NCBI GenBank assembly: GCA_964419075.1
Contig: CAYQOH010000001.1
Location: 22-64,021, forward strand
Direction: 5' to 3'
Origin: an uncultured Opitutaceae bacterium
Lineage (GTDB): Bacteria; Verrucomicrobiota; Verrucomicrobiia; Opitutales; Opitutaceae
Length of the DNA: 64,000 nucleotides
Shown: positions 35,263 to 60,325 of the stretch, one piece after another
How the letters are laid out: every line of letters starts with the position of its first letter
Numbering within the stretch: the first letter of the stretch is position 1
Notes under the pieces: generated by a model
Seen by the model: only the letters and a program-made list of their open reading frames with translations
Told to the model about the DNA's origin: nothing
Databases searched by the model: none
Program-made: the position numbers and the translations under genes

Positions 35263-36123
35263 ATGAAATCGGAAAATAGGAAATCCAAGGAAATCAGGGT
35301 CGGAATCGCCCAGATCTTTGCGTTGGATGGCGACCGTTCAGGGAATTTCGCAAGGATTGAGAATGCCGTGGTCGAGGCCAAGGCGATGGGTGCTCAAATT
35401 GTGACGTTTCCCGAGTCTTGCATCCTCGGCTGGGAGAATCCCGCGGCGCATGTGCGCGCCCATGCCATTCCTGGGCCAGACTCCGATCGGTTATGCGCCT
35501 TGGCACGCCGACACCGAGTCTACCTCTGCGTCGGCCTCGATGAGAAGGACGGCGATCGGCTCTTTGGGGCGTGCATCTTGGTGGATGATCGCGGCGAGCT
35601 GCTCGCGAAGCACCGGAAGGTGAATGTGCTTCCGGAACTGATGACGCCGCCGTATTCGGTTGGGAGGGGGGCGAGCGTAGTCGAAACCCCTTTGGGAAGA
35701 ATCGGGATCCTGATCTGCGCCGACTCCTTTCTGGAGGAACTGCTTCAGGAGACGCGTGCGGCGCATCCCGATATCATGCTGATCCCATACGGCTGGGCGG
35801 CGCCTGAGGACAAGTGGCCCGAACACGGCAAGAATCTGTGTGACACGGTGATTTCGGTGGCCTCGAAGGTCGGATGCGTTGTGGTTGGGACCGACCTCGT
35901 CGGGTCGATCACGAACGGGCCGTGGTCCGGACAGGTTTACGGAGGGCAGAGCGTGGTGGCGGAGGAGGGCGGGAGGGTCCTGCATGTCTGCAGGGACAGG
36001 GACCGGGATGTCGTGGTGGTCGCGGTGAAGCCAGGCCGACGGTCAAGTACGGAGGAAGGACCACGAGATGCGCGGGACACTTTTCCTGCCGGAGAGACCA
36101 GCAACGCGGAGGTCTCGCGATGA
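35263..36123 (+). CDS. carbon-nitrogen hydrolase (nitrilase superfamily) protein
   Basis: Glu-Lys-Cys triad context: VTFPES, HRKVNV, ILICADS. The stop overlaps the next start as ATGA (36120-36123). Confidence 0.8.
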   Translation: MKSENRKSKEIRVGIAQIFALDGDRSGNFARIENAVVEAKAMGAQIVTFPESCILGWENPAAHVRAHAIPGPDSDRLCALARRHRVYLCVGLDEKDGDRLFGACILVDDRGELLAKHRKVNVLPELMTPPYSVGRGASVVETPLGRIGILICADSFLEELLQETRAAHPDIMLIPYGWAAPEDKWPEHGKNLCDTVISVASKVGCVVVGTDLVGSITNGPWSGQVYGGQSVVAEEGGRVLHVCRDRDRDVVVVAVKPGRRSSTEEGPRDARDTFPAGETSNAEVSR

Positions 36124-37553
36124 CCGATCAAGCAACCCGCTTTACAGATCCCGAGGACAGGCTGCCACGCCGCGAGAAGATAGCATACGGACTGGGCACC
36201 GCAAACGACACGTGGGGCCATTGGCTGTACCCGGGCGTGGCGTACGCGATCTTCAACATCTACCTAGGGCTTGGACCCAGCCTTGTGGGCCTTGCGCTCG
36301 CCCTTATCCGGCTTTTCGACGCCGTTTCTGACCCGGTGTTCGGCTGGCTTTCCGACAATGCCCGTAGCCGGTTCGGCAGGCGGCGGCCCTTTATCCTCGC
36401 AGGCTCCGTCATAGGGGGGATTGGCCTTCCCTTCCTGTTCCTCGTGCCCTCATCGATTCGCGGCTCGTCGCTGTTCTGGTGGATGCTGATCTCGAACCTG
36501 CTCTACCTGCCGCTCATCAGCTGTTTCAACATGGCCTATCAGAGTCTCGGCGCTGAGCTGACCCCGGATTACCACGAACGCACCAGCGTAAATGCATTCA
36601 AGGCGGCCATCTCGAAGATCTTCGAGGTCACGACATTCGCCGCCCTGCCGTTCACGAACCTCTGGTTCTTTAGGAGCGCGGTCGACGGGAAACAGAACAC
36701 CCTCCTCGGGATCCAGGTCTACGCGGCGATTCTCGGGATGCTGATGGCCGTGATCGGCGTGGTCATCTTCTTCAACGTGAAGGAACGTTACTATAAGAGC
36801 GTCGCGTCCCGCCATCAGGAGACGGTGTCCATCAGGGACTCGATCTACGCGGCGATGGGTTGCCGGCCCTTCAGGCTGATCCTCTTTATCAACCTTTCGT
36901 TCACGGTGGGGACCGGAATGCTCAGCACCCTCGGATACTACATGACGATCTACTACGTGAACCAAGGCAACACCGTCGCGGGCAACAATTGGAACGGGCT
37001 GATGGGGCTCTCCTACATGCTGCTGGGTTTCCTGGGTGCGCCGTCGCTCGCCTGGATCGGCCGGCGAACCGGGAAGCGGGCGGCCATGTTCTATGCTCTC
37101 GGCATCGCCCTTTTCGCCTTCGGCGGGAACTGGTTCTGGTACAGCCCAAGGTTCCCTTGGCTGCAGCTGGTCGGCTCGGGAGCGGGTGCCTTCGGAAGCG
37201 CGGGGATTTCCATGATTGTGGGCTCCATGGTGGCGGATGTGATGGACTATGACGAGTTGGGCACGGGAAAGAGGCGGGAGGGCGCATTCTCAGCCTGCAA
37301 TTCGTGGATCAACAAGGCCGGCGGCGCAGCCGGCTATTTCATTGCCGGCCAGATCCTCAACGTCATCGGGTTCCACGCCGGATCGGTGGGCCCGCAGTCG
37401 GCCCACACGTTGGCGCTGTTGCGGGCGGCGGTCATTGCCGGGCCGATCCTAGGGATTGGCCTGGGTGCATTTTTGCTTTTGCGGTTTCCGCTCACGCAGG
37501 AGAGCATGCACGCGATCCGTCTCGAACTTGAGGCGCGGCGGGGCAAAATCTAG
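36120..37553 (+). CDS. MFS transporter, glycoside-pentoside-hexuronide (GPH):cation symporter family
   Basis: LFDAVSDPVFGWLSDNARSRFGRRRPFIL is the GPH signature, with about 12 TM segments. Confidence 0.8.
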   Translation: MTDQATRFTDPEDRLPRREKIAYGLGTANDTWGHWLYPGVAYAIFNIYLGLGPSLVGLALALIRLFDAVSDPVFGWLSDNARSRFGRRRPFILAGSVIGGIGLPFLFLVPSSIRGSSLFWWMLISNLLYLPLISCFNMAYQSLGAELTPDYHERTSVNAFKAAISKIFEVTTFAALPFTNLWFFRSAVDGKQNTLLGIQVYAAILGMLMAVIGVVIFFNVKERYYKSVASRHQETVSIRDSIYAAMGCRPFRLILFINLSFTVGTGMLSTLGYYMTIYYVNQGNTVAGNNWNGLMGLSYMLLGFLGAPSLAWIGRRTGKRAAMFYALGIALFAFGGNWFWYSPRFPWLQLVGSGAGAFGSAGISMIVGSMVADVMDYDELGTGKRREGAFSACNSWINKAGGAAGYFIAGQILNVIGFHAGSVGPQSAHTLALLRAAVIAGPILGIGLGAFLLLRFPLTQESMHAIRLELEARRGKI

Positions 37554-37582
37554 GCGTCGGCCATCCAACAACACGCGCAACG

Positions 37583-39454: not shown

Positions 39455-39478
39455 GGGCGTAACCGCCGCACCCCTCCC

Positions 39479-41449
39479 GTGAGCATGGTCGAAACCTACG
39501 AGCAAGCCTTCACCGTGGAATTCCGCTCACCTGAGTCCGCGCGCAAGGCCGCGGTTCGCGTGGCGGGCCTTTACCACGATTTCAAAGCGGCCTTCTCCAC
39601 GAGAATGGACGACAACAACTCAAATGATATCCGTGTTGCCGAGGTGATGGCACGTTTCGGACAAAAGGGGACATTCTTCCTGAACGATCCGTGGGCCTGG
39701 TGGGAGGGAAACGCGGATCAGGGATCCGCGATGCCACATGAGCCCGGATCGGAGGTCCCTAGGGGCCTGCGTGCCGGTGGGCATTCCATCGGGGCTCACA
39801 CGCTGAGTCACGACTACCTGCCGGCGCTCTCAAAGAACGCTGCGTTCAAGGAGATCATGGGGTCCCGGATCGTCCTGGAGGTCCAATCGGGATCGCCCGT
39901 CTCCACCTTCACGTTTCCGTTCATGTATTGGCGCTCGCCGCTGAGGGAGGGTCTCGACCGCACGGACATCGAGGAGGTGCTGCGTCGCTCTGGGATCGTG
40001 CAACTTGCCGAGGACGGCTACAACGGGGGGCGCGACACGGGGCTGCAAGACGCCTGTTTCATCGTCGTCGACGGGAAGGCGGTCGGGGGCGGATCTGGCG
40101 AGTCCGTGATCGACCGCGAATGCCAGCGCGGCGGGCGACCCCTGTTCCTCGTGTCAATGCACGCCTGGCCGGAGCGCTGGGGAGGTCGTGGGTTTCCGAT
40201 TCTCGAGGAGGTCTATCGCAGGTGGGCGGGCAGGCAGGACTGGTGGTATTGCAACGCGAACGAATACGCCGCCTACCGGTACCAGGCATTGCACACGGTT
40301 CTGACCACCAGAGTCGATGGCCGGTCGGTCCGAGTGACGCTTGCGAGGCCGGACCCGCTTGATCTGGGAGACTGGGTTCCCTTGACGCTGGCGTTCGACG
40401 GCGTGGGTCCGGAAGAGGTGCTGTCCTTGTCAAGTGAAGGGGCGAAGATCGAGACTTCCGGGATCCCGGGCCTCTGTGCCGTCGACCTGAGCCATGACGG
40501 GGAATTCGGACCCGTTGCGGCCTACGGCCGATCCGACAATCCCGGAAACAGCGATCGATGGGATGATGTGGCCCCATTTTCGGGATTGAGGGCGCTCCTC
40601 CAGAGGCGACCCGACCACCTGGTGCTCCACCTGAAGAATGATGGAGAGGCCCCCCTGCGCCGCATCCGGGTGACCTTCAGGCTGCCCCTGCGCTGGCGCG
40701 AGGGCGTTGTCCGGCGGAACCTGGAGGCCTTGGGGCCCGGCTCGACGGCCACCCTGAAGATTGATCTCTCGGAGCGACCCGAAACCGATGGGTACGCGGA
40801 TGGCGTGGAGTACGACGTGGCTCAGGTGGATTTCGTCGGCGTGTCTCGAGCGCGGCTTTATGCGTTGTGTGAGGCGCATCGCGAGGATGCCCCTGCCCAT
40901 TTCTCCCGCGAGGGGTTTCTCGTGCTGGGCCCCGTTCCAGGAGACCTTGCCGAGCTGGATCCCCAGTTCTTCGGCGAGAACTTCCCCGTGAACCGCGCCG
41001 GGGAGCGGGCCTACACGGCGCCTTGGGGACGGAGCCTGTCCTGGCGGGCCGTTGCGGCTCCGCTCGCCGGTTTCCTGGATCCGGACATTGTCCCCACGTC
41101 GGCGCAGGCGAATACCCTCGACATCCACGGCTGGCATTCGTCCTCCGTCCATCCGCACACGAGGATGAATTACCTGCTTCGCGGCATGATTCACGCGCCT
41201 GTTGGGATGACGGTGCATGCTGTCTTTGATCGAACGCGGGTCGTTCGCGTCGAGCTCAACGGAGTGGGGGTTTCGGATGGATCCCTCGAACTCAGGGAGG
41301 GCGCCAACGAGCTACGAATCCTCTACCACTCGCTCCTCGCCTGCGATTCGCAGTTCAACGAAGGCAACTACGGCTGCTACTTCCGGCTTGTGGATGCGAA
41401 GGGCAGGCGGGCAAAGGGGGTCCGGTTCGAGAGACCCAAGCCGGCCTGA
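39479..41449 (+). CDS. polysaccharide deacetylase (CE4/NodB)-like domain with long C-terminal extension, cytoplasmic paralog
   Basis: NodB-like motifs FSTRMDD and GAHTLSH, with no signal peptide. It is clearly similar along its full length to the product of 43240-45351. Start is GTG 39479 or ATG 39485. Confidence 0.6.
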   Translation: MSMVETYEQAFTVEFRSPESARKAAVRVAGLYHDFKAAFSTRMDDNNSNDIRVAEVMARFGQKGTFFLNDPWAWWEGNADQGSAMPHEPGSEVPRGLRAGGHSIGAHTLSHDYLPALSKNAAFKEIMGSRIVLEVQSGSPVSTFTFPFMYWRSPLREGLDRTDIEEVLRRSGIVQLAEDGYNGGRDTGLQDACFIVVDGKAVGGGSGESVIDRECQRGGRPLFLVSMHAWPERWGGRGFPILEEVYRRWAGRQDWWYCNANEYAAYRYQALHTVLTTRVDGRSVRVTLARPDPLDLGDWVPLTLAFDGVGPEEVLSLSSEGAKIETSGIPGLCAVDLSHDGEFGPVAAYGRSDNPGNSDRWDDVAPFSGLRALLQRRPDHLVLHLKNDGEAPLRRIRVTFRLPLRWREGVVRRNLEALGPGSTATLKIDLSERPETDGYADGVEYDVAQVDFVGVSRARLYALCEAHREDAPAHFSREGFLVLGPVPGDLAELDPQFFGENFPVNRAGERAYTAPWGRSLSWRAVAAPLAGFLDPDIVPTSAQANTLDIHGWHSSSVHPHTRMNYLLRGMIHAPVGMTVHAVFDRTRVVRVELNGVGVSDGSLELREGANELRILYHSLLACDSQFNEGNYGCYFRLVDAKGRRAKGVRFERPKPA

Positions 41450-41504
41450 GCCGTAACGCGCCGCCGAGCGGAGTTCGGACCACGGTGCCCGCCGCGCGGG
41501 CGAA

Positions 41505-43232
41505 TCACCCCTTGGGGATCACGACCAGGGTCACGCTCTGCGCCGGCACGGTCTCAACGGCGCGACCGTCGCTTAGGATAAGGTCTCTCAGGCGGTCTAT
41601 CCTGTTTGCGGCCGTGAGCTGCCACACCTGCGCGGGCACCGCTTTGTTCAAGCCAGTCACCGTAAGCTCAATGGGGATTGGGTGATCGAGGGACTTTGCC
41701 ACGATCATCACGGTTCGCGCGCCATCGGAAGACCGCTCTGCTGCAAAGGCCGATAACTCGTCGACATTGGCGGAGTTGGTCAGGCGGATTCGGGTGTCCC
41801 CGAAGGTCGACCGATGGCCGTCGTAGTTGCGGTACATCTGGAAGGCTTTGTCCACGAGGGTGCTTCCGGGCGTTGGAGTCCATCGCCTGGCAAGGTCAAG
41901 ACCCTCGCGATCGTCAATGCCGTGAATCCCGACCTGTTCGCGTGTCGCGAGGAAGACCCCTTCGCGTCCGAGGATGCCGAGGATGTCGGCCTGGGCCGTC
42001 GCGCCGTTGATGTGATCGACGGCTCCCCAGTCATATTCCGTGATGCCGATGGCGAGGCCTGGATAGTTGGAGGCGACAAGTTCCTTCATCCTGGGAATCA
42101 GGCGGACTCTATCGTCAATCCAGGAAGGGTCGCGGTAATCCGGGTCCCAGAGCGTTCGCGTCGAACGGTTCCGGCGGAGCTGCATTTCACGGGACACGTC
42201 GTCGCTGAATTCACCGCCCGCCGGGTAGAAATGAAAGGTGAACACATCCAGCAGCTTCACCGCGGACTTCTCCTCCCTTTGGCGGAGCTCCCCGAGTAGC
42301 CAAGGGGTGTAGTCTGCTCCACCCCGTGCGGCCCGGTCGGGGAACGGGTCCGAAGGGCCCGGGAATCTTCCACTTTCCTTCTTTCGCTCCTCGCCCCATT
42401 GCTGGTCCAACCCGCTGAAGAAGAACGCATTCCAGCCCCACTCCTCGGGGCCGCCGACGAGTGCCCCGGGGTCCAGCCGGTGCACCATGGACGCGTAGCG
42501 TGTGATGGCGTCGCAGAGTTCCGAGGCAGAGGGTCCCCGCCGTATGACATCCCCATGGCTCGCCCACCAGATGCTGGGTTCGTTGTCCATCAGGTAGACA
42601 CGGACGCCTCCATCTGCAGCCTTTCCCCAGCGACGGACGAGGTGTTCAACAAGCCCTCGCTGGAAGTCCACCGAGGCAGCCTTATTGGCATCCCGCGGAT
42701 CGTTGTCCGTTATGGGCTCACCGCCGGGCGAGCGAAGGCCGTTGCCTGCATCCGAATACTCGCCGGAGCCGTGGGCCGTCTGGGCCCCGTATTTCGCGAC
42801 CGAGTAGCTCCAGAGCGGGCCTTGCCCCGGGCCCAGCCGTGCGGTCCAGCCGGAGATCGGAATCGTCACTATCGCACGGGCTCCCGCAGCTCGGCTGTTT
42901 TCGACAACGGCATCAAGAAGGCCGCAGGGCGATTCCCCGCCCGGCTCCGGCCGGCTCAGGTACCACGGCCTCGAATGGTTGCTGGCGTTGAGCTCCCAGT
43001 TGTAGAGCGTCGCGTAATTCCCCCCTTGCCGGTTCACGGTCGCATTGTTCGCCTCAAGGTCGGCGGCCGTGCCGAACATCATTCCGTAGATCTCGGGATG
43101 GATGGGTCGCCGGTCTGCGGCGGAATCGACCACGAGATGTACGGCCGGAGCCTCGGCGGCGAGCCGACTTGCGGAGCAAAGGGAGAGTGCCGCAGCGAGT
43201 CCCAGCGCAAGGCGTCGGCGGTGAGCAGGCAC
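41505..43232 (-). CDS. glycoside hydrolase family 44-like, secreted
   Basis: Signal peptide. NRQGGNYATLYNWELNASN, YLMDNEPSIW and GITEYDWG resemble the GH44 (endoglucanase/xyloglucanase) conserved blocks as I recall them. Confidence 0.6.
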   Translation of the reverse strand: MPAHRRRLALGLAAALSLCSASRLAAEAPAVHLVVDSAADRRPIHPEIYGMMFGTAADLEANNATVNRQGGNYATLYNWELNASNHSRPWYLSRPEPGGESPCGLLDAVVENSRAAGARAIVTIPISGWTARLGPGQGPLWSYSVAKYGAQTAHGSGEYSDAGNGLRSPGGEPITDNDPRDANKAASVDFQRGLVEHLVRRWGKAADGGVRVYLMDNEPSIWWASHGDVIRRGPSASELCDAITRYASMVHRLDPGALVGGPEEWGWNAFFFSGLDQQWGEERKKESGRFPGPSDPFPDRAARGGADYTPWLLGELRQREEKSAVKLLDVFTFHFYPAGGEFSDDVSREMQLRRNRSTRTLWDPDYRDPSWIDDRVRLIPRMKELVASNYPGLAIGITEYDWGAVDHINGATAQADILGILGREGVFLATREQVGIHGIDDREGLDLARRWTPTPGSTLVDKAFQMYRNYDGHRSTFGDTRIRLTNSANVDELSAFAAERSSDGARTVMIVAKSLDHPIPIELTVTGLNKAVPAQVWQLTAANRIDRLRDLILSDGRAVETVPAQSVTLVVIPKG

Positions 43233-43239
43233 GGTAGGC

Positions 43240-45351
43240 TTAGGGAGCTGGGGGCCTCTCGAACGTCACATCCTCCAACGGCCGGCCCTCGCGCGAGGCT
43301 AGTCTGAAATAGCATCCATAGTTCGCCGGGGAGAACGTCGATCCGATGCCGGGCGCCGGGGCGTAGAGGATGCAAATCGTGTTTTCCCCCTTGTGTAGAG
43401 GAAACTCGCCCCCGTCGACCACCCCGCCATTGACCGAGAGACTCCTGACGCAGTCTTTGCGGTACACGGCCCGTACGTTCCGCTCGAAAGGGCTCAGGAC
43501 GCGCCCATAGAGGAGGTAATGCACCCTCTTGTGGGGAGAATAGATGGCGGGATCCCAGACGTAGAAGCTAGGTATGTTGGATCTTCCGGTCGTTGGGATG
43601 ATATCGGGATCGAGGATGGACGCTCTTGCAGGATCAAGCGTCCTCCATGAGAGGCGGCCGCTCCAGTGCACCGCGTACTCCCTTTCCGGCTTGGCTCCCG
43701 AGAGCAGGGCACTTGAGAAGGCTAGCGGGTCGAAGTCGGGCTCGTCGCCTGCAAGGGGGCCCAGGATCCAGAAGCCGTCCCTGGCGAAACTGGAAGCGGG
43801 CGCCCCGGCCGCCGTCTCACAGGTGGCGTATACGCGGGCCCGCTCGGACCCACGGTAGTCGATCTGGGCGACATCATATTCACTGCCGTCGCAAAAATGC
43901 CCCGAGTCCTCCCGCTCGGAGAGTTGAATCTGAACCTGGGTGGAGGCGCCCTTCTCTAGGTCCCTGAGGGATTCACGGACTACTCCTGTCTTCCAGCGAA
44001 GCGGAAGCCGGAAGACCACCCGAATATCGCTCAGGTTGCACCCACCGCTGTTCTTTAGGATCAGGGTGAGGCGCTCTCCCCGGTGAAAAAGGAGCGCCTG
44101 CAGTCCTTCCGGACCCGCCTCGCCGTGACCGAGTTGATCGGTGTTCGTTGGGTTGCTTGACTCGTGGAAGGCGCCAATCGAGCCCCTCCGCGTGTCGTGG
44201 AACAGGTCGAATGAATAACTCGGGCCTATCTTCACAGGTTCCGTTACCGCCGCGGATGCAGTGACCGAAAGCACATCCTCCGGATGACATCCCTCCACCA
44301 GGAGCGTGAGGGGAACAGGGTCTCCCAGGTCCAGGGCATCTGGGCGAGTCAGGACCGCCCGGAGCGTGGATCCTTCGACAAACACGGACAGTCGAGAATG
44401 AAGGGCCTGGTACCGATACGCTGCGTATTGGCTTTGATTGCAATACCACCAGTCCGGCCGGCTTGCCCATCTTCGTTCCAGATCCGACAGCAGAGGGAAG
44501 TCCGGCGCCCCCCAGGCGCTTACAAGGGCATGCATCGTTACGAGGAAGAGCGGCCTTTCCGAAGGGGGAAGGGGCGCGGTCAGAACGGATTCAGAATACG
44601 TTCCCTCGTCGCCGCTATTGTCGACGGTGATAAAGACAGCATCTTGCAGTCCGCTGTCCCAGTCCGCGTTGTACCGGTGCTCCGCAAGCTGGAAATAGCC
44701 TGCTCGCCTTAGGATCTCCTCGAGGTCGGCGCGCTCGGACGCATTTCGAAGACCGGTCTCGATGTAGGACACAAAGGGATAGGTGAACGAGATGCAGGGA
44801 GAGGACGCGTGAGCCTCGATCGCCACACGGATCCCCATGATCTCCTTGAACGCGGCGTTCTTGGAGAGCACCGGCAGGTATTCGTGGTTGAGGGTGTGTC
44901 CGCCCAGGGAATGGCCGCCCGAAAGGAGCCGCCGCGGGATCTCGAGTCCGGGGTTTTTCGGGGCCTTGATGCCCGTCGCGGGGTTGTCCTGCCACCACGA
45001 CTCGGGGTTGTTGAGGTAGAATGTCCCTTTCTGGCCGAATTTCTCCAACACCTGCGCCACCATGAGGTCGTTCAGGTTTGAGTCGTCCATCCGCGTCGAG
45101 AACGCGGCTTTGAGGTCGTGGTACAGCGGGGCGATGTGCAGGTGCGCCGCATTTGCGGCAGCCTCCGAGCGAAACTGCACCACCACGGTTTGCGCGTAGG
45201 AGTCCATCCTCACGGGCCCGAGACTTGATGCAGGGTCCTCCCCGAATGTCGATGATGCGGCAGCGGCGAGCAGGAGGGCCGCGGAAGGGGCCCTTCCGGT
45301 CCGGAATCCACGTATCCTTGTCCCTGGGTCGATTGCAGGGTTTGATTTCAA
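43240..45351 (-). CDS. polysaccharide deacetylase (CE4/NodB)-like domain with long C-terminal extension, exported paralog
   Basis: Signal-like N terminus (APSAALLLAAAASSTFG), and the same FSTRMDD / GGHTLNH motifs and C-terminal NYGCYFRL block as its paralog. The TTG start overlaps the upstream TGA (45348-45351). Confidence 0.6.
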   Translation of the reverse strand: MKSNPAIDPGTRIRGFRTGRAPSAALLLAAAASSTFGEDPASSLGPVRMDSYAQTVVVQFRSEAAANAAHLHIAPLYHDLKAAFSTRMDDSNLNDLMVAQVLEKFGQKGTFYLNNPESWWQDNPATGIKAPKNPGLEIPRRLLSGGHSLGGHTLNHEYLPVLSKNAAFKEIMGIRVAIEAHASSPCISFTYPFVSYIETGLRNASERADLEEILRRAGYFQLAEHRYNADWDSGLQDAVFITVDNSGDEGTYSESVLTAPLPPSERPLFLVTMHALVSAWGAPDFPLLSDLERRWASRPDWWYCNQSQYAAYRYQALHSRLSVFVEGSTLRAVLTRPDALDLGDPVPLTLLVEGCHPEDVLSVTASAAVTEPVKIGPSYSFDLFHDTRRGSIGAFHESSNPTNTDQLGHGEAGPEGLQALLFHRGERLTLILKNSGGCNLSDIRVVFRLPLRWKTGVVRESLRDLEKGASTQVQIQLSEREDSGHFCDGSEYDVAQIDYRGSERARVYATCETAAGAPASSFARDGFWILGPLAGDEPDFDPLAFSSALLSGAKPEREYAVHWSGRLSWRTLDPARASILDPDIIPTTGRSNIPSFYVWDPAIYSPHKRVHYLLYGRVLSPFERNVRAVYRKDCVRSLSVNGGVVDGGEFPLHKGENTICILYAPAPGIGSTFSPANYGCYFRLASREGRPLEDVTFERPPAP

Positions 45352-47959: not shown

Positions 47960-48092
47960 TGTTTTTGTACGTCCGCTGGCTTGGAACACCCTGCCGGCAG
48001 GCTTCCATTCTGGGCCATTCCTCCTAAGAATAGAATCTACGGCCGGACGAAACGCCTGTAATATTGGATGGGGCCCTCGGGGAACCCGCGGC

Positions 48093-50181: not shown

Positions 50182-50187
50182 TCACCG

Positions 50188-52203: not shown

Positions 52204-52334
52204 TGCTTCCCGGTACCGGAATTCGAACGTGGATGAGGCCGCAGGCCGGTTTGAGTGCCGTTTAGGGCGGGTCGACGAGACTTGAGGCCTTACCTCAAGG
52301 GGACACTCTTGAGGGCCAGGGCGGAGGGGAGAAC

Positions 52335-55184
52335 TCAACTGATTTCCCAGCGCAGCGGGTTACCGGGACGACTCTCTCCCGCGAATCGGATCGACGGCCC
52401 CGGGTTCGTCTGGGCCTCGGCAGAGCCGTTGACCCTGACCTGGCGCGTTCGCGCCCCTTCGGGGCCGGAGAGTGTCAGTTCAATCTCCCAGCGTCCGGCC
52501 GCGGCAGGCGCGTACCATCCCGTGTAGCCGTTCCTGGCCTTCTTGAACCCGAGGAGGGGGGACGTGAATGCGTACTCCGCCATGGGAAGGTCCGGCTTGA
52601 AGCTGACGCCGCCCTCGTGGAACTCGAGTCCCAGCAGCTTGGCCGCGCTGTAGAGGGGCCAGGCGTGCGGGTGCATGTTCATGACCGGGAAGTCTGTCCA
52701 ATTGTATCCCCAATCGTCTTGCACCTGCAGTTCGGTCGACGGGTGTTCCGCAAACATGGTCTGGCCGGGATACCGCGACAACACGGAGTTGTAATAGTCG
52801 GGACCACTCCAGATTCCGTACCAAAGGTCCGGATAAGCCTCCGCGTGCTTCGCAAGCGAATTCTTCTTCCACTCGTCCCAAGCCAGCGCACCGTCTTCCG
52901 TGGCCAGCGCCCAGATCAGGGTTCCATTGATGGCGGACCAAACGCCCCCGTTGGACAGCGTGCCGACCGGTCGCTTGATGGTGCTCACGCCTGGGTTTTG
53001 CAAAAGGGCACCGATCGGCGAGGGCTTTCTCAGGGTCTCGTCAAGTGCGGCGACCAATGTCTTGCGCTGCTGTGCCGTTGCCGCGCCTCCGATGACGGCC
53101 CACGGCTGCGGCTCCAGCCAAAGATGGTCTTCGCCGATCCACCCAACCTTCGGGCCCAGCCAAGCGCGGCGGAACCACTGCCCCGCCCATTGCGCCTGGA
53201 CCGACCGTCGTTGCGCCTCAGCTCTTGCGCCTGCCTCGTCAGCGGCCTTGGAGTCCCCGGCATACGCGAGCATTCGCGCATAGTGCTCGAGGACATAGGA
53301 GGCCATCGCGGCATTGAGAACGCTTTCGCCTTCCTTGCGGATCTCCTCTCTCTGTTCTCGCGGGGCATATGCGACCACGACCTCGTCGTTCCAATCCCCG
53401 TTGGAAAGGCGCATCACGCCGTGCTTCCCCGAGCCAATGCCTTCGACAAGGTGTCTGAAGGAGCGCCCGAGAAGCTCGCGGACCGTGGGGTCTGCGGGGT
53501 TCGGCTCCTGCCGCGGATAGACGGGAATTCTCTCTTCGAGAAATGCCGTGTCGCGAGTTGCGAGCACATATTCGCTGGCCGTCCAGAGGAGCCACAGCTC
53601 CAAGTCGCTCGGAATGTAGAATGCAGGCATTGGAACACCGCTTCCCACGATGCCGTAGGGAATGGACCCGTCCGGCTGGATCTCCTTCAGGGTGTAGCGG
53701 ATTATTCCCCGGACAATCTCCGGTTTGCTGAAGACGAAGGGCAAGGTATGCTGCAGCGGATCGCGCGCCGCTCCCTGAAATCCCACGATGTACTGGTAGA
53801 CGTGGCCCTGCGAGAGCATGTGCTCACGGAAGAAGCTGTCATAGGTCAGGTTGCTGCGAAGGTAGTAGTTGTGCCAGGACGTCTCTCGTTCCACCCATGG
53901 CTCGAGCGGCGTGCTAAATCGAACACCGTCCCCCTTCCAGGCCGCGCTTGAGCGTGACCACAGCAACGCCGGGTCGGACGAGTATTTCGCCACAAGCTCG
54001 TTGACCTCGAAACCCTGCGGGACATAGCCATACAGAAAGCTGAGCGTTCGGCTCTCTTGGGGCTGGAGCCTGACGTCGCGTTCAAGCAGAAACGCGCTTT
54101 CCGGACCGGTGGAGCCAAGATCGTTGCCCAGCTTGGCCGAGAGCCCCGAAGGACGGTCGATTCCGCCTCCGCCGAAAAAGGCGGAGGCGTTCGTCGCAAA
54201 CCCGTCAATCGGGGCGTCCAACGAAACCAGAAACGTGGACGGTGGGTTGAGGTCCTCCATCGATGTCTGGGGCGATAGTTTCGGCAAAGACCCGCCTAGG
54301 AAGCCGGAAGGGTTCTTCTTCAGATACGCCTCCACGTCCTCCCACGCCCGGATGTCTTCGGGATCACGTCCAAGGAATCTCTGCGTCTCGACCAGGCCTG
54401 CGCCGTTCGCCATCGGCCGGAACTGGTGCGCAAAGCGCCGGGCGAACTGGCGGCGGCGATCCGCCGCATTGACCGCTTCGTTCGCCGTCGCCTGCATCGT
54501 CGAGCGGAAGGAAAACTGAATATTCTGGCAGCCCCAGTATTCGAGCCATCGGAGGTCCGCGACCTGGCTCGAATGGTTTGTGACCGTAACCATTGAGACC
54601 AAGACCGGATCGTCCCCGAAGGGTGCGAAGATCACCTGGTCGACCCCGTACTGGCGTCCCTTCACAGCCTTTTTGAAATAGCCTTCGCCCAGGATTCGCT
54701 CGAAGGACTCGCCATGTCCGGGATAGTAGGTGCTCAGCGTTTCGTCTCCACCGGTGAGGAATCCGACACCGGCCCCGTAGAGGCCAAGATCGGGGCAATA
54801 GTCGTTCAGGAATTTCGGCGAACCCTCGTCCTGGCGCACCTGCACGTATCCGTAATTTGAAACGGCGGCAACCAGGCGATCATTTCCCACCTGGTGCGTG
54901 TGGTCGGCGGCCGAGCGCCACTGCGGGTGGACCGGGCACCGGGCCTTGGCGTCGGTGAGCTGGTTGCAGGTGTACCGGTAGGCCGGCAGGCCGAACGGAT
55001 CGGTGATCCATTCGCCGAAGTGGCCCGACCCGTAGGCATTCCCTCCTCCGTCCCGAGCTCCGGGTCCGCTCATGGGTGCGCCGATGGCGGCGAGCAGGCG
55101 GCCGTTAAGGGAAGTGCCAGCATACACGGTGCCGGTCAGCGCTGCACTTTGGAGGAGAAACTTGCGTCGATTCATGGTCTTCAT
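52335..55184 (-). CDS. large (alpha/alpha)6-barrel glycoside hydrolase/phosphorylase-like protein (GH94-type GDWND motif) with Tat-type signal
   Basis: The N terminus MKTMNRRKFLLQSAALTG resembles a Tat signal. An internal SNGDWNDEV matches the catalytic DWND block of cellobiose/chitobiose-phosphorylase-like enzymes. About 950 aa. Confidence 0.55.
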   Translation of the reverse strand: MKTMNRRKFLLQSAALTGTVYAGTSLNGRLLAAIGAPMSGPGARDGGGNAYGSGHFGEWITDPFGLPAYRYTCNQLTDAKARCPVHPQWRSAADHTHQVGNDRLVAAVSNYGYVQVRQDEGSPKFLNDYCPDLGLYGAGVGFLTGGDETLSTYYPGHGESFERILGEGYFKKAVKGRQYGVDQVIFAPFGDDPVLVSMVTVTNHSSQVADLRWLEYWGCQNIQFSFRSTMQATANEAVNAADRRRQFARRFAHQFRPMANGAGLVETQRFLGRDPEDIRAWEDVEAYLKKNPSGFLGGSLPKLSPQTSMEDLNPPSTFLVSLDAPIDGFATNASAFFGGGGIDRPSGLSAKLGNDLGSTGPESAFLLERDVRLQPQESRTLSFLYGYVPQGFEVNELVAKYSSDPALLWSRSSAAWKGDGVRFSTPLEPWVERETSWHNYYLRSNLTYDSFFREHMLSQGHVYQYIVGFQGAARDPLQHTLPFVFSKPEIVRGIIRYTLKEIQPDGSIPYGIVGSGVPMPAFYIPSDLELWLLWTASEYVLATRDTAFLEERIPVYPRQEPNPADPTVRELLGRSFRHLVEGIGSGKHGVMRLSNGDWNDEVVVAYAPREQREEIRKEGESVLNAAMASYVLEHYARMLAYAGDSKAADEAGARAEAQRRSVQAQWAGQWFRRAWLGPKVGWIGEDHLWLEPQPWAVIGGAATAQQRKTLVAALDETLRKPSPIGALLQNPGVSTIKRPVGTLSNGGVWSAINGTLIWALATEDGALAWDEWKKNSLAKHAEAYPDLWYGIWSGPDYYNSVLSRYPGQTMFAEHPSTELQVQDDWGYNWTDFPVMNMHPHAWPLYSAAKLLGLEFHEGGVSFKPDLPMAEYAFTSPLLGFKKARNGYTGWYAPAAAGRWEIELTLSGPEGARTRQVRVNGSAEAQTNPGPSIRFAGESRPGNPLRWEIS

Positions 55185-55739
55185 GAGTTGAAAGCAGAGC
55201 TGACGTGAGCACGCTCTATTGAGCCGGGGTTGTGTTAGTTTGGGCGGGTTCGTGCCAACTACGAGCTCATAGGCAAAGATTAGAGCGATGAGGGGTGACA
55301 CTCCAAAGTTCCGAAGGAGTGCCGCCACGAACGAGAAGGAAAGCGGCAAGGAGGGGGAGCCCAGACGGCTTCATACATGACGACAAGAATCGTGCGGTGA
55401 GGCTGCACGGAGCCCCTTGGCATTCGTTCATAACCGATTCGTGCGTCCGAGAAGATCGAATCTGAAATTGGCTAGCTCCCCAACGCCTTTGGGCACTGAT
55501 TCTTCAAAGCAAACTCTTGATTCGAAGAATTGGTGATTTCGACAGTTCTTCATGCTCCTTTTGTTGAGAGGGTCCCGATCTTCTGGGCGCCCAAGGTGCA
55601 CGGGTCCTGCCGGGACACCTATGGTAAGCTTATCGCCCTGCAGCCCGGCCATCGCGCCCTGCAGAAGGGGTCCGCGGTCTGACTGAACAACTCAGCGCCC
55701 CGGGGCGTGGTCTCCCTTCTTCACCGCCAGAGTGGTCCG

Positions 55740-58208
55740 TCATTCGGCCCGCAGCGCCTCGAGCGGGCTGATGCGGCCGGCGCGCAGGGCAGGGACCAGG
55801 CATGCTAGCAAGGCGACACCAGCGAGCGCCGTCCCGACCGCCGTGAATGTCACGACATCGAATGCGCTGGTCTCAAAGAGCATGCTCTGAAGGATGCGCG
55901 ACAACGCGAGGGATCCGGCCAGCCCGGCGCCCAGGCCAATGAACACGATACGCATGCTTTGATTCACGATCAGCCGCACAATATCACCCTGCGTGGCACC
56001 CAGGGCGGTTCGGATGCCAAGCTCGCGGGCCCTCTGGGTCACGTTCCACGCCACAACCCCATAGATGCCGACCGCCGCCAGCACGCTCGCCACGGAGGCG
56101 AAGAGTCCCAGAAGCACGGTGCTGAAACGGTTCTGGCGCAGGCTCTGTGCGATTGTGATCTCCATCGTCGACAGTTCCCGGATCGGCTGGTTGGGATCGG
56201 CTGCCATCACGATCGCGCGGGCGGCAGCGGCAGCGAGCAGTGGATCGCCGTTCGTCCGCATGAGGACAATCATGCCGTTGCGGATGATCGGCGAGTCCCA
56301 GCTCTGGTCGACGGGCAGGTAGGCCGCCGGTGTTGGATCCGACTGAAGGCCGGAATGGCGCGAGCTCTGGACGACGCCGACGACGCGCGTCCACTGGAAT
56401 TTGTCCAAGCCCGGCGGGAGCAGGCCCGGCTTGATCAGGTTGGCGGGCAGCCCGAGCATGACCTTCTGGCCGAGCGGGTCCCGGCTGCCGAGGAATTGCT
56501 TAACCGCGGCCTCGTTCAGGATGATGACCGGCTCCGACCCGGCGCGGTCGGCCTCAGTGAAAGCCCTCCCCCGCAAGAGCCGCAGGCCCTGGGCGGTGAA
56601 GTAGGCGCCGGTCACGCAGCTGAACTGGACGCTCTGGAGATCGCTGAGGTTCGAATAGGTGCGCTCGGGCGTAATGAGCGGAAGATTATTGCTCCCAAGC
56701 AGCGGCGCGTTGCTCGAAGCAGCGGCGGCCCTGACCCCCGGCAGGTGAGTCGAGCGTGCGACCACCTCCGTGAAGAACCGTGTCGCCTGTTCGCCCGTCG
56801 GATAGCGGGATTGTGGAAGCTGGATCGTCATCACGAGCAGATTCTCGGGATTGAAGCCCGGGTCAACGGACTGGAGCCTCGCGAAGCTGCGGATGAGGAG
56901 GCCAGCGCCGATAAGCAGGATGAGGGAGAGGGCCACCTCGCCCACGATGAGGCCCGAGCGTACCATGGAGCTTCGCGGGCCGACTGTGCCACGTCCGCCT
57001 TCCTGAAGCGCGCCCGTAAGGCGGTCCCGGGATAGCTCGAGGGCTGGAAGCAGGGCAAAGACAAGCATGGTGCCCGTGCACACGGCGACGGAAAAGAGCA
57101 TGACCGGCAGATTCACAGTGATGGCCGCTTCGGACGGGATGACATCCGCGGGAAGAAGGGCGAGCAGGGCCCTGAGGCCCCACGCTCCCACGAGGATTCC
57201 GGCGCCGGCGCCAAACGCGGCGAGCGGGATGCTCTCGAGAAGGACCTGCCGGACGAGGCGGCCCCGGCCGGCTCCCAGCGCCGACCGGATCGCAAATTCG
57301 CGTTGGCGCGTGGTAGCGCGCGCGAGCAGGAGGTTGGCGACGTTGGCGCAGGCTATGAGCAGCACAAAACCGACGGCCCCCAGAAGCATGAGCAGCGGGT
57401 TGCGGATGGGTCCCGAAACCGAGTCCGACAGCATGACGGCGCCCACGCCGATATTCTTGTTCGAGTCGGGGAACTGGTCGGCAATCCTCTTTGCGATCAC
57501 GCCCAGTTCGGCCCTGCCGTCCTTCAGAGTGGCGGTTGGCTTCAGCTTTCCCACGACCCAAGTGTTCATCCGGAGGACGCGGCTTCGCATGAGATCCGTG
57601 TCCGCCTCCAAGCCCACCGGCAGCCAGACCTCCGCGCCCCAGAACTTGAAGCGCGGCGGCATCACGCCGACCACCGTATAGGCCTTTCCGTCGAGCATGA
57701 GCTCCTTCCCCACCACATCGGGGTTTCCCCCGAGGCGATTCATCCACATGGAGGCGCCGATAACGCAGACGGGATCCGCGCCCGGGCGGTCCTCCGCCTC
57801 GGTGAACGCGCGTCCCAGCATGGGCTTCATTCCGAGCAAAGGCCACGCCGAGGCGGAGATGAGCGCCCCCCTCAGGCTCGCGGGCTCCTTTACCTTCGTG
57901 AGCGTCAGCTCTCGGTTCCAGGCGTAGGCCAGAAAGTCGAACTCGCGGGCTTCCTTGCGCATTTCAAGGTAGTCGGGGTAGGTGACCGGCATCTGGCCGC
58001 TCTGTCCCACGGGCGCGGAGCTGATGAAGGTGATGCGTTCGGGGTCCGTGTAGGGAAACGGGTGAAGCAGCACGGCGTGGATCACGCTGAAGATGGCCGT
58101 GTTGGCGCCGACGCCCAGGGCCAGCACCGCCGTGACCGTGACCGTGAATCCGGGGGACTTTCGTAGGAGGTGCAAGGAGTGAAGCAGGTCGGAGAGAATT
58201 GAGTTCAT
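55740..58208 (-). CDS. ADOP-family duplicated FtsX/MacB-like ABC transporter permease
   Basis: N-terminal LLRKSPGFTVTVTAVLALGVGANTAIFSV and two MacB_PCD/FtsX modules in one 822-aa chain. Confidence 0.85.
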   Translation of the reverse strand: MNSILSDLLHSLHLLRKSPGFTVTVTAVLALGVGANTAIFSVIHAVLLHPFPYTDPERITFISSAPVGQSGQMPVTYPDYLEMRKEAREFDFLAYAWNRELTLTKVKEPASLRGALISASAWPLLGMKPMLGRAFTEAEDRPGADPVCVIGASMWMNRLGGNPDVVGKELMLDGKAYTVVGVMPPRFKFWGAEVWLPVGLEADTDLMRSRVLRMNTWVVGKLKPTATLKDGRAELGVIAKRIADQFPDSNKNIGVGAVMLSDSVSGPIRNPLLMLLGAVGFVLLIACANVANLLLARATTRQREFAIRSALGAGRGRLVRQVLLESIPLAAFGAGAGILVGAWGLRALLALLPADVIPSEAAITVNLPVMLFSVAVCTGTMLVFALLPALELSRDRLTGALQEGGRGTVGPRSSMVRSGLIVGEVALSLILLIGAGLLIRSFARLQSVDPGFNPENLLVMTIQLPQSRYPTGEQATRFFTEVVARSTHLPGVRAAAASSNAPLLGSNNLPLITPERTYSNLSDLQSVQFSCVTGAYFTAQGLRLLRGRAFTEADRAGSEPVIILNEAAVKQFLGSRDPLGQKVMLGLPANLIKPGLLPPGLDKFQWTRVVGVVQSSRHSGLQSDPTPAAYLPVDQSWDSPIIRNGMIVLMRTNGDPLLAAAAARAIVMAADPNQPIRELSTMEITIAQSLRQNRFSTVLLGLFASVASVLAAVGIYGVVAWNVTQRARELGIRTALGATQGDIVRLIVNQSMRIVFIGLGAGLAGSLALSRILQSMLFETSAFDVVTFTAVGTALAGVALLACLVPALRAGRISPLEALRAE

Positions 58209-58747
58209 TCAGTTCGTGGAGGGCTCACATCGGTGGACGAAAACTAATGGGCCCTATTAGAGCAATGCCGATGCCAAGCCTTGAGCGTATTTTAAAGTAA
58301 TACGGAACAATAACTAACGAATCAGCTGTCGGTTCTTCACGGACATGAATTGACCGAATGTGGGAAGCGGACGTCCCGGATCTGGGATCACCGCCGGGGG
58401 TTCCTTGTGTCGCAGCGCGACGATGGAGATGCGGGCCTGCGGCGGCCGGGTGGGCATGCGGCGGAATCCCCTTTGGCGCAGTGAACTCTCAGGAAGAGGT
58501 CACAAGATCGGCAACCTGCGGGAAATCGCTTCGGTGGCCTGGCAATGCGACCCCGAGGCGGTGGCCGTCACTCTCGAGGATCTCTCTCCTCGGTCCCCGT
58601 CCTTGAGCGGCCCAGCCCGGCGATGCCGACCACGTGTCCCCTTAGGCAAAGCTTTTCCGACCGGTCCGGGGCACGCATGAATGACCCATGGGCATAGACG
58701 GGTAACGAGGCATTTACTTCATCCTCGAATGGCCGTTAGCTTGCGTG

Positions 58748-60325
58748 ATGGCGAACCTACTACCGGATCCGGGGCTCGCGCCTGTCACTTCGGCGAAGCA
58801 ACCGCATGCGGTCATCTCACTTTGCCGACTGTTGGCTGCGGCGGCCTTGCTCCTGCTGCTGCCGAGGGCCGCGCGGGCCGAGCCCATCCGCCCCTATCCG
58901 GCGAATCCCCACTACTTCATGCGTGACGGTAAGCCTATAGTATTGGCGACCTCCGATCACCACTACGGCGCGGTCATCGACGCGAACTTCGATTTTGCGC
59001 GCTTCCTCGATTACCTCGCGGCGAGCGGCATGAACCTTACCCGCATCTATCCGGGCGGCATGTTCGAGCCCCCTGACAAGTACGTCGCGGGCAATCCGCT
59101 GGGGCCGCGACCCGGCCACCAGATCCTGCCGTGGATGCGCTCGGGCGAGGCGGGGGCAAATGCCTCGCTTGCGGAGCCGGGCAAGGCGTCGCTCAAGTTC
59201 GATCTGGATCGGTGGAATCCCGACTATTTCGCGCGCCTGAGGGCCTTCGTCGATCTCGCTCGAAAGAAGGGCATCGTGGTCGAGGTCGCTTTCTTCAACG
59301 GCATGTATGCAGATTGCTGGCCGCTGATGGCGCTCTATCACGCCAACAACATCCAGGGTGTCGGGCGCTATGAAGCCGCGGAATGCGGGCTCTTCACGAC
59401 GTGCAACCCCCGCAACGAGGATGTTCTCCGCTACCAGCGCGCCTACGTCGCCAAGATAACCGCTGAACTGAACGAGTACGACAACGTGATCTTCGATATC
59501 TGCGACGAGCCCCTTCTGCAGGGGCTTCCCGGCGGCAAGGTTGTCTTCATGCCGGAAAGCGACGTGATTCCTTGGCTTCACGAGCTAAAGAACGCGTTCT
59601 TCGAGGCGCAGTCCAAGCTCCCCAAGGTGCACGTGCTCGGGCAGACGGTACAAAGCGCCTCCCCGGATCTCTCCGCTGAATCCTGGTGCGACTGGCTCCC
59701 CACCGAGTATGTTCGCGCCGCCGCGGAGGCCCTCAAGAAGAACTACGCCGCCTGCAAGCCGATCGTCGATGTGGAGTCGGACTACTTCGGAGGCGCCCTC
59801 GTAAGGCCATACACTACGGAGGACGTGCGGATTGAGGGTTGGTGGTTCCTGCTAAACGGGGGTGCCGGAAACACCAACCTCAACGGGGAGTACTTTGCCG
59901 GGCGGGAAACTGGAGGCGCTGACACACATGGGAAGGTCGTACCGCAGAGGAGAATCCTGAAGGACTTTGTCGAGGGCCTTGACCTCAGGTCGATTGTGCG
60001 GTTCGAGGGCCTGGGCGGAGTCCCCGCCGGTACCCGTTCGGGAGCCCTTGCAATCCCGGGCGTGGAATATGCGGTATACGTCGCGCATGCCAAGGACGAT
60101 GGAGAATGGGGCGCACACTTCGTCGGCGTCCCCGGCGCCTACCGCGACACGTTTACACTGAAGGCTGTGCCCGAGGGTGCCTATCGGCTGGATTGGATTG
60201 AGCCGGAGACAGGCCTGGTCAGGGCGTCCGGGCGAATCGACTGGCGCGGAGGCGATCTTACCGTGACAACCCCTGCGTACGCGCTTGACGTGGCGCTCCA
60301 CATGCGCGCTGCGGCCGTCCACTGA
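58748..60325 (+). CDS. putative glycoside hydrolase, GH5-like TIM barrel, secreted
   Basis: Signal peptide. NPHYFMRDGKPIVL at the N terminus and NVIFDICDEP (NEP-like acid/base block) suggest a clan GH-A barrel. The family assignment is uncertain. Confidence 0.5.
   Translation: MANLLPDPGLAPVTSAKQPHAVISLCRLLAAAALLLLLPRAARAEPIRPYPANPHYFMRDGKPIVLATSDHHYGAVIDANFDFARFLDYLAASGMNLTRIYPGGMFEPPDKYVAGNPLGPRPGHQILPWMRSGEAGANASLAEPGKASLKFDLDRWNPDYFARLRAFVDLARKKGIVVEVAFFNGMYADCWPLMALYHANNIQGVGRYEAAECGLFTTCNPRNEDVLRYQRAYVAKITAELNEYDNVIFDICDEPLLQGLPGGKVVFMPESDVIPWLHELKNAFFEAQSKLPKVHVLGQTVQSASPDLSAESWCDWLPTEYVRAAAEALKKNYAACKPIVDVESDYFGGALVRPYTTEDVRIEGWWFLLNGGAGNTNLNGEYFAGRETGGADTHGKVVPQRRILKDFVEGLDLRSIVRFEGLGGVPAGTRSGALAIPGVEYAVYVAHAKDDGEWGAHFVGVPGAYRDTFTLKAVPEGAYRLDWIEPETGLVRASGRIDWRGGDLTVTTPAYALDVALHMRAAAVH

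Follow-up and report, generated by a model that had tools for sequence, protein, structure and literature searches.

The window considered here is a stretch of 64,000 nucleotides from the genome of an uncultured Opitutaceae bacterium, and its positions 35263 to 60325 hold 14 genes that a first-pass annotation, made from the letters alone, had read as one AraC-associated cluster of carbohydrate-active enzymes with an unusual set of amide- and ester-cleaving proteins. We present evidence that the left 17 kb of this block (35.0-52.2 kb) forms, as judged from its sequence, one AraC-controlled regulon of three operons for the use of what is presumably an acetylated beta-glycan. The block as a whole is probably a mosaic, horizontally acquired genomic island in the tRNA-Met integration hotspot of a bacterium of the Planctomycetes-Verrucomicrobia-Chlamydiae (PVC) type. 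What is new here is that amidases of the nitrilase superfamily, a tandem hydrolase of the metallo-beta-lactamase (MBL) fold and long proteins of carbohydrate esterase family 4 (CE4) appear as members of a glycan locus of a known type. We put the probability of the general model, in which an island-borne regulon serves to import oligosaccharides and trim them inside the cell, at about 0.6.

The genome is a 78.7%-complete assembly of 3.48 Mb in 519 contigs, and genes were called from an open reading frame (ORF) listing together with Pfam and NCBIfam scans of the window proteins. This reproduced every entry of the earlier list of 14 genes, and the start/stop overlaps at 36120 (ATGA), 46487-46490 (ATGA) and 45348-45351 (TTGA) are present as described. 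The genes and operator-like sites of the proposed regulon, with glycoside hydrolase families given as GH numbers and motif scores taken from a position weight matrix (PWM), are as follows.

35001-35036, plus strand: operator-like site 3, 226 nt before CN-hydrolase 1; PWM score 27.2, not in the training set
35263-36123, plus strand: operon 1, CN-hydrolase 1 (nitrilase superfamily, type 1), cytoplasmic; PF00795, 112 bits
36120-37553, plus strand: operon 1, GPH-family sugar:cation symporter, in ATGA overlap with the upstream gene; PF13347, 226 bits; TIGR00792, 193 bits
37583-39454, plus strand: operon 1, tandem MBL-fold protein of 623 aa with a C-terminal beta-sandwich; two stretches of Pfam Lactamase_B
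39479-41449, plus strand: operon 1, long CE4-like deacetylase a (CE4a); PF01522 and NPCBM_assoc
41505-43232, minus strand: operon 2, GH44 endo-beta-glucanase/xyloglucanase, exported, with an N-terminal signal-like sequence; PF12891, 157 bits
43240-45351, minus strand: operon 2, long CE4-like deacetylase b (CE4b) with a signal peptide, 47% identical to CE4a; CE4 and NPCBM_assoc; TTG start overlapping the SGNH stop
45348-46490, minus strand: operon 2, GxDLY plus SGNH esterase of 381 aa, exported, with a hydrophobic N-terminal signal; PF14606, 192 bits; PF14607, 131 bits; ATGA overlap
46487-47959, minus strand: operon 2, 490-aa clan GH-A-like glycosidase, cytoplasmic; no Pfam, NCBIfam or PDB sequence match
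48032-48067, minus strand: operator-like site 1, before operon 2 (GH-A protein, SGNH, CE4b, GH44); PWM score 49.8, with orthologous sites in loci L010 and L114
48093-48998, minus strand: AraC-family regulator of about 302 aa; HTH_18, 74.5 bits; HTH_AraC, 65 bits; AraC_binding, 20.9 bits
49098-49133, plus strand: operator-like site 2, before operon 3 and divergent to araC; PWM score 41.7, 31 of 40 positions as in site 1
49261-50181, plus strand: operon 3, CN-hydrolase 2 (type 2); PF00795, 117 bits; orthologues at 63-70% in L011, L095 and L096
50188-52203, plus strand: operon 3, exported right-handed beta-helix protein, GH141-like; Beta_helix and GH141_M

The strongest computational support for a single regulon comes from a 36-bp element, CCAATATTnCAGGnnnnTC(G/A)TCnGGCnGTnGATTC, which was exposed by comparing the intergenic regions of the window with those of L010, a related locus on a metagenome contig (related loci are named below by our L labels where they must be told apart). 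The start of araC was set near 48998 by alignment to orthologues in L010 (77%), L114 (70%) and L096 (66%), and the divergent promoter region is therefore 260 bp long. A degenerate pattern built from two window sites recovered, with up to three mismatches allowed, nothing but these two, whether in the window or anywhere in the 3.48-Mb assembly. We then scored positions with a PWM whose five training sites came from the window (two) and from L010, L095 and L114 (one apiece), and the three top scores among 6.9 million genome positions were the three sites listed above, with the next best at 17.3 in the genome and at 11.9 inside the window. Site 3 lies within a stretch conserved with L010, whose counterpart at 2535 scores 18.5, and all three sites are oriented as the gene that each precedes. 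Untrained sites scoring 23-28 stand before homologous operons in three related loci, namely a GPH-MBL-CN-hydrolase 2 operon in L096, an Amidohydro_2-CN-hydrolase 1-GPH-MBL-CE4-like operon in L095, and both araC and a peptidase/isochorismatase/GDSL operon in L114. The loci with these sites encode AraC orthologues of 66-77% identity; the motif was not found in loci that lack an AraC orthologue (L011, L125), and the highest score over 1.67 Mb of unrelated loci was 19.1. The amidase and MBL genes had been grouped with the glycan genes on function, and the shared operator-like motif, present before all three operons and nowhere else in the genome, supports this. The idea that the whole 25 kb acts as a unit did not survive, since the functional unit is the 11 genes at 35.0-52.2 kb and no PWM site precedes the GH94-like, ADOP and GH140-like genes on the right, which are better treated as unrelated island cargo.

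The regulon is also conserved as a unit in a relative, as the earlier reading would have it. On L010, ten genes stand in the same order at 69-90% amino acid identity, comprising CN-hydrolase 1, GPH, MBL, CE4a, GH44, CE4b, SGNH, the 490-aa protein, AraC and a beta-helix gene, with CE4b and GH44 appearing as truncated gene calls and the beta-helix gene giving no similarity match to the GH141-like gene of the window. The combination of CN-hydrolase, tandem MBL and long CE4-like (CE4L) genes, which had been singled out as unusual, recurs elsewhere: among six contexts of the MBL clade at 55% identity or more, the adjacent genes include a CN-hydrolase in all six, a long CE4 in four and GPH in three. 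L095 holds both types of CN-hydrolase, as the window does, and a CE4L-CN-hydrolase 2 pair is found in one congener (G007). L114 and L160 share an AraC protein (70%), a GH26, a homologue of the 490-aa protein (72%), a GPH symporter and a CE4L-GH44-CE4L set, the last being kept in L160 together with the GH-A protein and AraC. In this regulon variant, aminotransferase, Amidohydro_2/M19 fusion, M20, M24 and isochorismatase-family genes replace CN-hydrolase and MBL, and L114 has in addition an oxidoreductase (Gfo/Idh/MocA).

Two further observations were made in these loci. Immediately beside the GH28/MBL/GH29/CN-hydrolase/CE4L cluster of an Opitutaceae metagenome-assembled genome (MAG; GCA_028688225.1) lies, at L011:1-6541, a corrinoid methyltransferase set, made up of MtaB, a URO-D/MtaA-like protein, a B12-binding protein, a RACo activase and a PocR-AraC regulator, which may reflect the demethylation of methylated sugars. 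An exported protein of 352-354 aa with no family match precedes the MBL module in both L011 (8790-9848) and L095 (5853-6917), the two copies being 60% identical; in L095 the regulon motif stands before it, and the window lacks it.

Beyond these close relatives, the tandem-MBL family comprises 375 matches of about 620 aa, spread over Opitutaceae, Planctomycetota, Gemmatimonadota, Poribacteria, Latescibacterota, Armatimonadota, Chloroflexota, Actinomycetota and Paenibacillus. In the 80 loci surveyed, CN-hydrolase, CE4 and GPH partners were confined to the close clade, except for one Poribacteria locus (L027), and the partnership is therefore specific to the clade and not family-wide. In Paenibacillus gansuensis (L071) and other Firmicutes and Chloroflexota loci (L066-L090), MBL homologues of 30-35% identity have GH84 on one side and GH38 on the other; class II aldolases, an OtnK-like kinase, DeoR and ROK are also nearby. 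In Gemmatimonadota, Latescibacterota and unclassified MAGs (L021, L029, L031, L035) a DUF2961/GH172 gene follows the MBL gene.

The proteins at the centre of the proposal keep the residues expected of active enzymes and stay apart from characterised branches. Both CN-hydrolases retain the Glu-Lys-Cys triad, with E51, K119 and C152 invariant in seven sequences, and their Pfam CN_hydrolase scores of 112 and 117 bits compare with a cut-off of 23.2; they represent two subfamilies, with about 31% identity between types 1 and 2. Against the NCBIfam equivalogs they reach 56 and 77 bits at best, where the cut-offs for the nitrilase, N-carbamoylputrescine amidase, omega-amidase/Nit, formamidase and Lnt branches stand at 355-503, and their best PDB matches have E values of 7e-16 and 9e-19. 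The C-terminal domain of the MBL protein has a complete HxHxDH motif (H327-Y-H329-D-D331-H332) together with H400, D421 and H475, all invariant, and thus a complete binuclear metal site, whereas its N-terminal domain has the variant H59-x-F61-x-D63-H64 and a degenerate metal site. A Foldseek search with the AlphaFold2 model (predicted local distance difference test score, pLDDT, 84.8) returned generic B3-type matches only (TMq at most 0.29), which give no functional clue, and found no solved structure that combines a tandem MBL with a beta-sandwich. The possibility of a true subclass B3 beta-lactamase was rejected on these low TMq values, on a score of 44 bits against an NCBIfam cut-off of 240, and on the two-domain, cytoplasmic architecture of 623 aa. 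At the equivalog level, then, neither the CN-hydrolases nor the MBL protein match a known housekeeping enzyme, in agreement with the first-pass annotation.

CE4a and CE4b score 38.9 and 31 bits against a Pfam cut-off of 23.1. On the strength of their intact catalytic motifs (RMDD with D44/D45, H107-x3-H111 as HTLxH, and M-H228, invariant in both paralogs and four homologues) they are classed as members of the CE4 (NodB-type) family. CE4b has a signal peptide; CE4a has none and is probably cytoplasmic. The SGNH esterase had been listed correctly, with the correction that its start lies at 46490 and its product carries a signal sequence and is exported. The GH44 protein matches a solved metagenomic cellulase (PDB 3FW6/3II1) at E 1.9e-153 and the Cel44 xyloglucanases at E 1e-50. 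The GH141-like protein matches BT_1002 (GH141) in the PDB at E 8.9e-22 over residues 35-325, the GH141_M domain itself scoring only 28.4 bits over 29 residues.

The 490-aa protein had earlier been entered as an uncharacterised protein of 491 aa, which holds for sequence searches in Pfam, NCBIfam and the PDB, yet its model folds as a clan GH-A-like glycosidase. The AlphaFold2 model (pLDDT 87, predicted template-modelling score 0.89) is a (beta/alpha)8 barrel with a beta-sandwich, and Foldseek matched it to the barrels of GH26, GH39, GH79, GH51 and GH30 (E 1e-10 to 1e-7), with probability 1.0 and TM 0.41-0.69 for GH26, GH39, GH79 and GH51. Invariant N153-H154-E155 follows the strand 149-152 and invariant E291 lies in the strand 287-294; by their place in the model, NHE155 and E291 would sit where clan GH-A enzymes hold their acid/base and nucleophile. 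The protein is most likely a cytoplasmic retaining beta-glycosidase. Its family, which has at least 1897 homologues at about 44% identity across phyla including Bacillota and Lentisphaerae and is without a Pfam model, is a candidate for an unclassified glycoside hydrolase family.

Taken together, these enzymes suggest a pathway of import and trimming. Outside the cell, GH44 would cut a backbone that is probably of the beta-1,4-glucan, xyloglucan or glucomannan type, while the GH141-like protein, the SGNH esterase and CE4b would strip side groups and acetyl esters. The GPH symporter would take up the resulting oligosaccharides, from which CE4a would remove leftover acetyl groups (O- or N-linked) in the cytoplasm, where the clan GH-A-like glycosidase would cleave them. 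A further non-sugar group, or a product released from it, would be cleaved by the tandem MBL and by both amidases of the nitrilase superfamily; their target would most likely be an amide or another C-N or ester-linked substituent. AraC would sense an intermediate and activate all three promoters through the 36-bp site. It is the substrate, the order of the steps and the targets of the CN-hydrolases and the MBL protein that we infer.

A nitrogen-bearing substituent on the glycan is plausible, and three observations speak for it: CN-hydrolase 1 is translationally coupled to the symporter, CN-hydrolase, CE4L and MBL genes are persistently adjacent, and the L114 variant exchanges CN-hydrolase and MBL for an aminotransferase, an oxidoreductase, amidohydrolases and peptidases. 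A specific de-N-acylation or deamidation step is a possibility that we hold tentatively. Doubtful, though worth stating in full, is the widest claim that might be made, namely that Opitutae-type bacteria have an undescribed mobile, AraC-controlled pathway for a beta-glycan with acetyl and amide-linked nitrogen substituents, in which the amidases, the tandem MBL and the long cytoplasmic CE4 are new de-substituting families and the 490-aa protein founds a family of clan GH-A. The earlier remark that no pathway of this composition has been described agrees with our literature searches, which turned up no regulon that unites amidases of the nitrilase superfamily with a tandem-MBL hydrolase and long CE4 proteins.

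The block that carries the regulon lies between repeats derived from a tRNA gene, listed here with the sequence next to the right-hand end.

34743-34790, minus strand: fragment A, 3' half of tRNA-Met(CAT), a degenerate left att-like repeat that matches the intact congener tRNA-Met at 87.5% over 48 nt and includes the core CCTTCAGGTTATGAGCC
60350-60719, plus strand: islet-end remnant comprising a hairpin, a small ORF and the 3' end of a zeta-like gene; over 420 bp it shares 78% identity with the stretch before fragment D
60720-60770, minus strand: fragment B, 3' half of tRNA-Met, the right att-like repeat, which matches the 3' 49 nt of the intact gene in three congeners at 98%
61927-61976: repeat C, a further tRNA-Met copy
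contig end: repeat D, a further tRNA-Met copy

Fragments A and B had been noticed before and are real; that there are only two is not, as four tRNA-derived repeats exist. They were recognised solely by comparison with congeners; ARAGORN and Rfam detected no tRNA anywhere in the window, nor a tRNA-Met in the rest of the 78.7%-complete genome. Three congeners (G010, G021, G023) have an intact tRNA-Met followed by one 3'-half fragment 1.2-3.6 kb downstream, and in G021 the islet between the two is a ParD/zeta pair with 75% DNA identity to the islet between B and C in our window. A comparison anchored on the tRNA shows a hotspot with small islets in the congeners, and the genes at 3-9 kb recur in G021 at a distance of about 5 kb. 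Repeats B, C and D stand in tandem around this ParD/zeta islet and a DUF6880-like/zeta-like islet (60720 to the contig end); the contig (C1, to 64668) stops inside repeat D, past the window. Fragments A and C have similar right flanks (74% over 124 bp), so that both ends of the 26-kb block resemble those of the C-D islet, the left by this stretch and the right by 78% over 420 bp including the 3' end of the zeta-like gene. The glycan genes therefore either lie inside a member of the same islet family or have replaced its interior.

Composition and distribution point the same way. The GC content of the island is 0.626 against 0.681 in the left 34 kb, with a drop at about 34 kb, and against 0.675±0.022 for the host; among the 10-kb windows of the genome it falls at about the 2nd percentile. 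The GC had been called patchy on hand counts of 31/60, 30/60 and 45/60; the counts are exact, and the lowering is even over the whole block. GC at third codon positions (GC3) is 0.72-0.83 across all 14 island genes and 0.88 in the left neighbour gene. No orthologue of the tandem-MBL gene was found in 24 congeners and 16 other families of the order (40 relatives), nor any relative of CN-hydrolase 1 at E of 1e-40 or below in 400 genomes of the phylum, and a DNA comparison of 49261-60325 with 38 congeners matched only the ADOP gene (70-76%) and CN-hydrolase 2 (two congeners). Among the marks of a tRNA island, then, direct repeats from the 3' part of a tRNA, deviating composition and a marker gene missing from the relatives searched were all found, and an integrase was not. 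A homologous cluster (L161, upstream of L095) adjoins a TrwC relaxase, a TraG-like coupling protein, PRiA4_ORF3 and a DUF772 transposase, and is therefore on a conjugative element or plasmid, while another adjoins IS21. A chimeric contig was considered as the cause of the GC step and is unlikely, given that repeat A is degenerate and that the ADOP gene and toxin-antitoxin islet of the right half have 75-76% DNA identity to congeners.

To the right of the regulon the island carries three further genes.

52335-55184, minus strand: GH94-superfamily barrel with a signal of the twin-arginine translocation (Tat) type, no motif; PF17167, catalytic domain 98 bits
55740-58208, minus strand: ADOP duplicated permease; TIGR03434 at 878 bits (cut-off 622); MacB_PCD and FtsX each in two stretches
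58745-60325, plus strand: exported GH140/GH5-like barrel; weak Pfam matches only (Apiosidase 6e-07, Cellulase 7e-03)

The GH94-like protein is distantly related to cellobiose phosphorylases (E 1e-19), and its Tat-type signal (motif RRKFLL, in MNRRKFLLQSAALTG) is unlike the cytoplasmic GH94 phosphorylases. The ADOP gene belongs to a multi-copy family with 70-76% nucleotide identity to congeners, has the highest GC3 of the island (0.83) and is probably of local origin in the genus; no PadR-type partner was found for it. The non-coding stretches at its flanks (55562-55727 and 58548-58682) recur in several congeners at 70-79% nucleotide identity, with no PadR-type gene or other ORF behind them, and one of them recurs elsewhere in the window (16637-16721). 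The GH140/GH5-like protein has no PDB sequence match.

Several observations weigh against the reading of an island-borne regulon acting on a substituted glycan. None of the 14 island genes has a recombinase domain in Pfam, and no long ORF or integrase remnant was recognised by eye in 34292-35262, where no Pfam scan was made; the contig ends inside repeat D, and an integrase further on is therefore still possible. The resemblance of the island ends to those of a small toxin-antitoxin islet leaves the route of arrival in doubt. The left flank is not syntenic in congeners, hence there is no clean empty site: the left-flank gene (31025-34291) has orthologues at 63-70% identity with no tRNA-Met upstream of them, which makes the empty-site test uninformative. 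Beyond the close clade, the MBL gene adjoins GH38, GH172 (DUF2961), GH84, sugar kinases and binding proteins and almost never a CN-hydrolase, and these partners are all missing from 20 loci whose CE4L genes are only distantly related (about 30% identity). A homologue of the MBL protein at 47% identity and one of CN-hydrolase 1 at 61% stand in non-glycan contexts, and the latter means that the amidases may act on a common small metabolite and not on a glycan substituent. Furthermore, we know of no glycan cut by GH44 that carries amide substituents.

The homologues in non-glycan contexts would fit an ordinary hemicellulose locus for acetylated glucomannan, xyloglucan or beta-glucan, with CN-hydrolases and an MBL protein expressed alongside as helpers that act on small molecules and not on the glycan, by detoxifying nitriles, lactones or plant aglycones or by metabolite repair of the Nit1/glyoxalase-II type. 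The GH44 protein is about as close as possible to a characterised cellulase, SGNH/GxDLY and CE4 enzymes fit the removal of O-acetyl groups, and in L114 the GH-A protein comes together with a GH26 and a GPH symporter. There is also weak NCBIfam similarity of the N-terminal MBL domain to GloB and of the CN-hydrolases to deaminated-glutathione amidase, but these similarities fall far under the family cut-offs. Helpers of this kind would moreover hardly call for translational coupling of CN-hydrolase 1 to a sugar symporter, for a CN-hydrolase beside MBL in 6/6 close-clade contexts and often beside CE4L, or for the many other nitrogen-handling enzymes of the L114 regulon variant, and we consider this explanation rather unlikely.

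Further from the general model is a target of microbial or fungal origin, that is, an amino-sugar glycan or glycopeptide, for example cell-wall material, an exopolysaccharide or a polymer resembling chitosan, which CE4a and CE4b would de-N-acetylate and from which the MBL protein and the CN-hydrolases would take off acyl, amino-acid or carboxamide groups held by amide bonds. The two CE4 paralogs, whose NodB motifs are complete, would suit such a target, as would the Paenibacillus relatives of the MBL gene, which GH84 and GH38 flank and which have a tagatose-bisphosphate-type aldolase, kinases and DeoR nearby, the same aldolase, kinase and DeoR set in the P0021 context, and the aminotransferase, Gfo/Idh/MocA oxidoreductase and M19, M20 and M24 peptidases of the L114 regulon. 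It is nonetheless improbable: Pfam finds no GH18, GH19, GH20, GH46, GH75, NagA, NagB or muramidase in the window, and GH44, GH26 and GH141 are, to our knowledge, not known to act on amino-sugar polymers. Most improbable of all is an accidental assemblage of genes in a decayed mobile element, with no common function. The island is a mosaic, ADOP looks local to the genus, the three right-hand genes are without the motif and no integrase was found, all of which would suit such an origin, but the motif sites are common to exactly the three operons, L010 has the same gene order, and the same modules with the motif occur in four other loci. For the left 17 kb this explanation is largely refuted; for the GH94-like, ADOP and GH140-like genes it is possible.

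We see the locus as a real, probably mobile and, to judge from the shared motif, co-regulated glycan locus, and as a lead, good though not extraordinary, to a sugar-processing pathway not yet described. If these amidases and the MBL hydrolase do act on glycan-derived substrates, they would add enzyme classes beyond those in the carbohydrate-enzyme catalogues and would imply that natural glycans bear a decoration which present models of their degradation overlook. The 490-aa family, with at least 1,900 homologues across phyla, would supply probable glycosidases that lack a family model, and the 620-aa tandem-MBL family is consistently associated with carbohydrate genes across at least ten phyla. 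The 36-bp operator-like site offers a handle for finding the inducer. The occurrence of such clusters on an island, beside a relaxase and beside IS21 suggests that catabolic modules of this kind move between Verrucomicrobia-type genomes.

Among known systems, the locus does not qualify as a polysaccharide-utilisation locus of the SusC/SusD type known from Bacteroidota: there is no SusC/SusD pair or TonB-dependent receptor, as judged by the lack of Plug, TonB_dep_Rec and SusD domains in the 14 proteins (Pfam). A Plug-domain receptor does occur in two related loci, L095 and P0021, but no SusD does. The archaeal chitin pathway is similar by analogy only, in that a cytoplasmic deacetylase and a clan GH-A exo-enzyme (there an exo-beta-glucosaminidase) act on an imported oligosaccharide, but it uses CE14, whereas here the deacetylase is CE4-like and the window has no chitinase and no sign of glucosamine metabolism. 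As an island, the block resembles tRNA-integrated islands in its direct repeats of a tRNA 3' half, its deviating GC, its tandem array at one tRNA and an MBL marker not found in the relatives searched; it differs in that no integrase or excisionase was detected, its ends are shared with a 2-3-kb toxin-antitoxin islet and its content is mosaic. The import-then-trim pathways for mannan and cellodextrin (for example in Roseburia or Bacteroides fragilis), which use a GH26 or GH5 endo-enzyme, a GPH symporter and, inside the cell, esterases with glycosidases or phosphorylases, share with our proposal extracellular endo-cleavage, symport, and intracellular deacetylation and cleavage, but the locus lacks GH130, an epimerase, CE2 and CE17, its glycosidase belongs to a family without a Pfam model, and it has amidases. 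In its mode of working the locus is like the carbohydrate-active enzyme clusters outside Bacteroidota (Cellvibrio, Xanthomonas, Verrucomicrobia), which are controlled by AraC or LacI and have an importer of the major facilitator superfamily or GPH type. Like these, the locus exports an endo-glycanase and esterases, has a symporter for the inner membrane and exo-acting enzymes for the cytoplasm, and encodes its own AraC, with sites ahead of every operon; it differs from them in having two amidases, a tandem MBL and unusually long CE4 proteins in the regulon, all carried on a mobile island.

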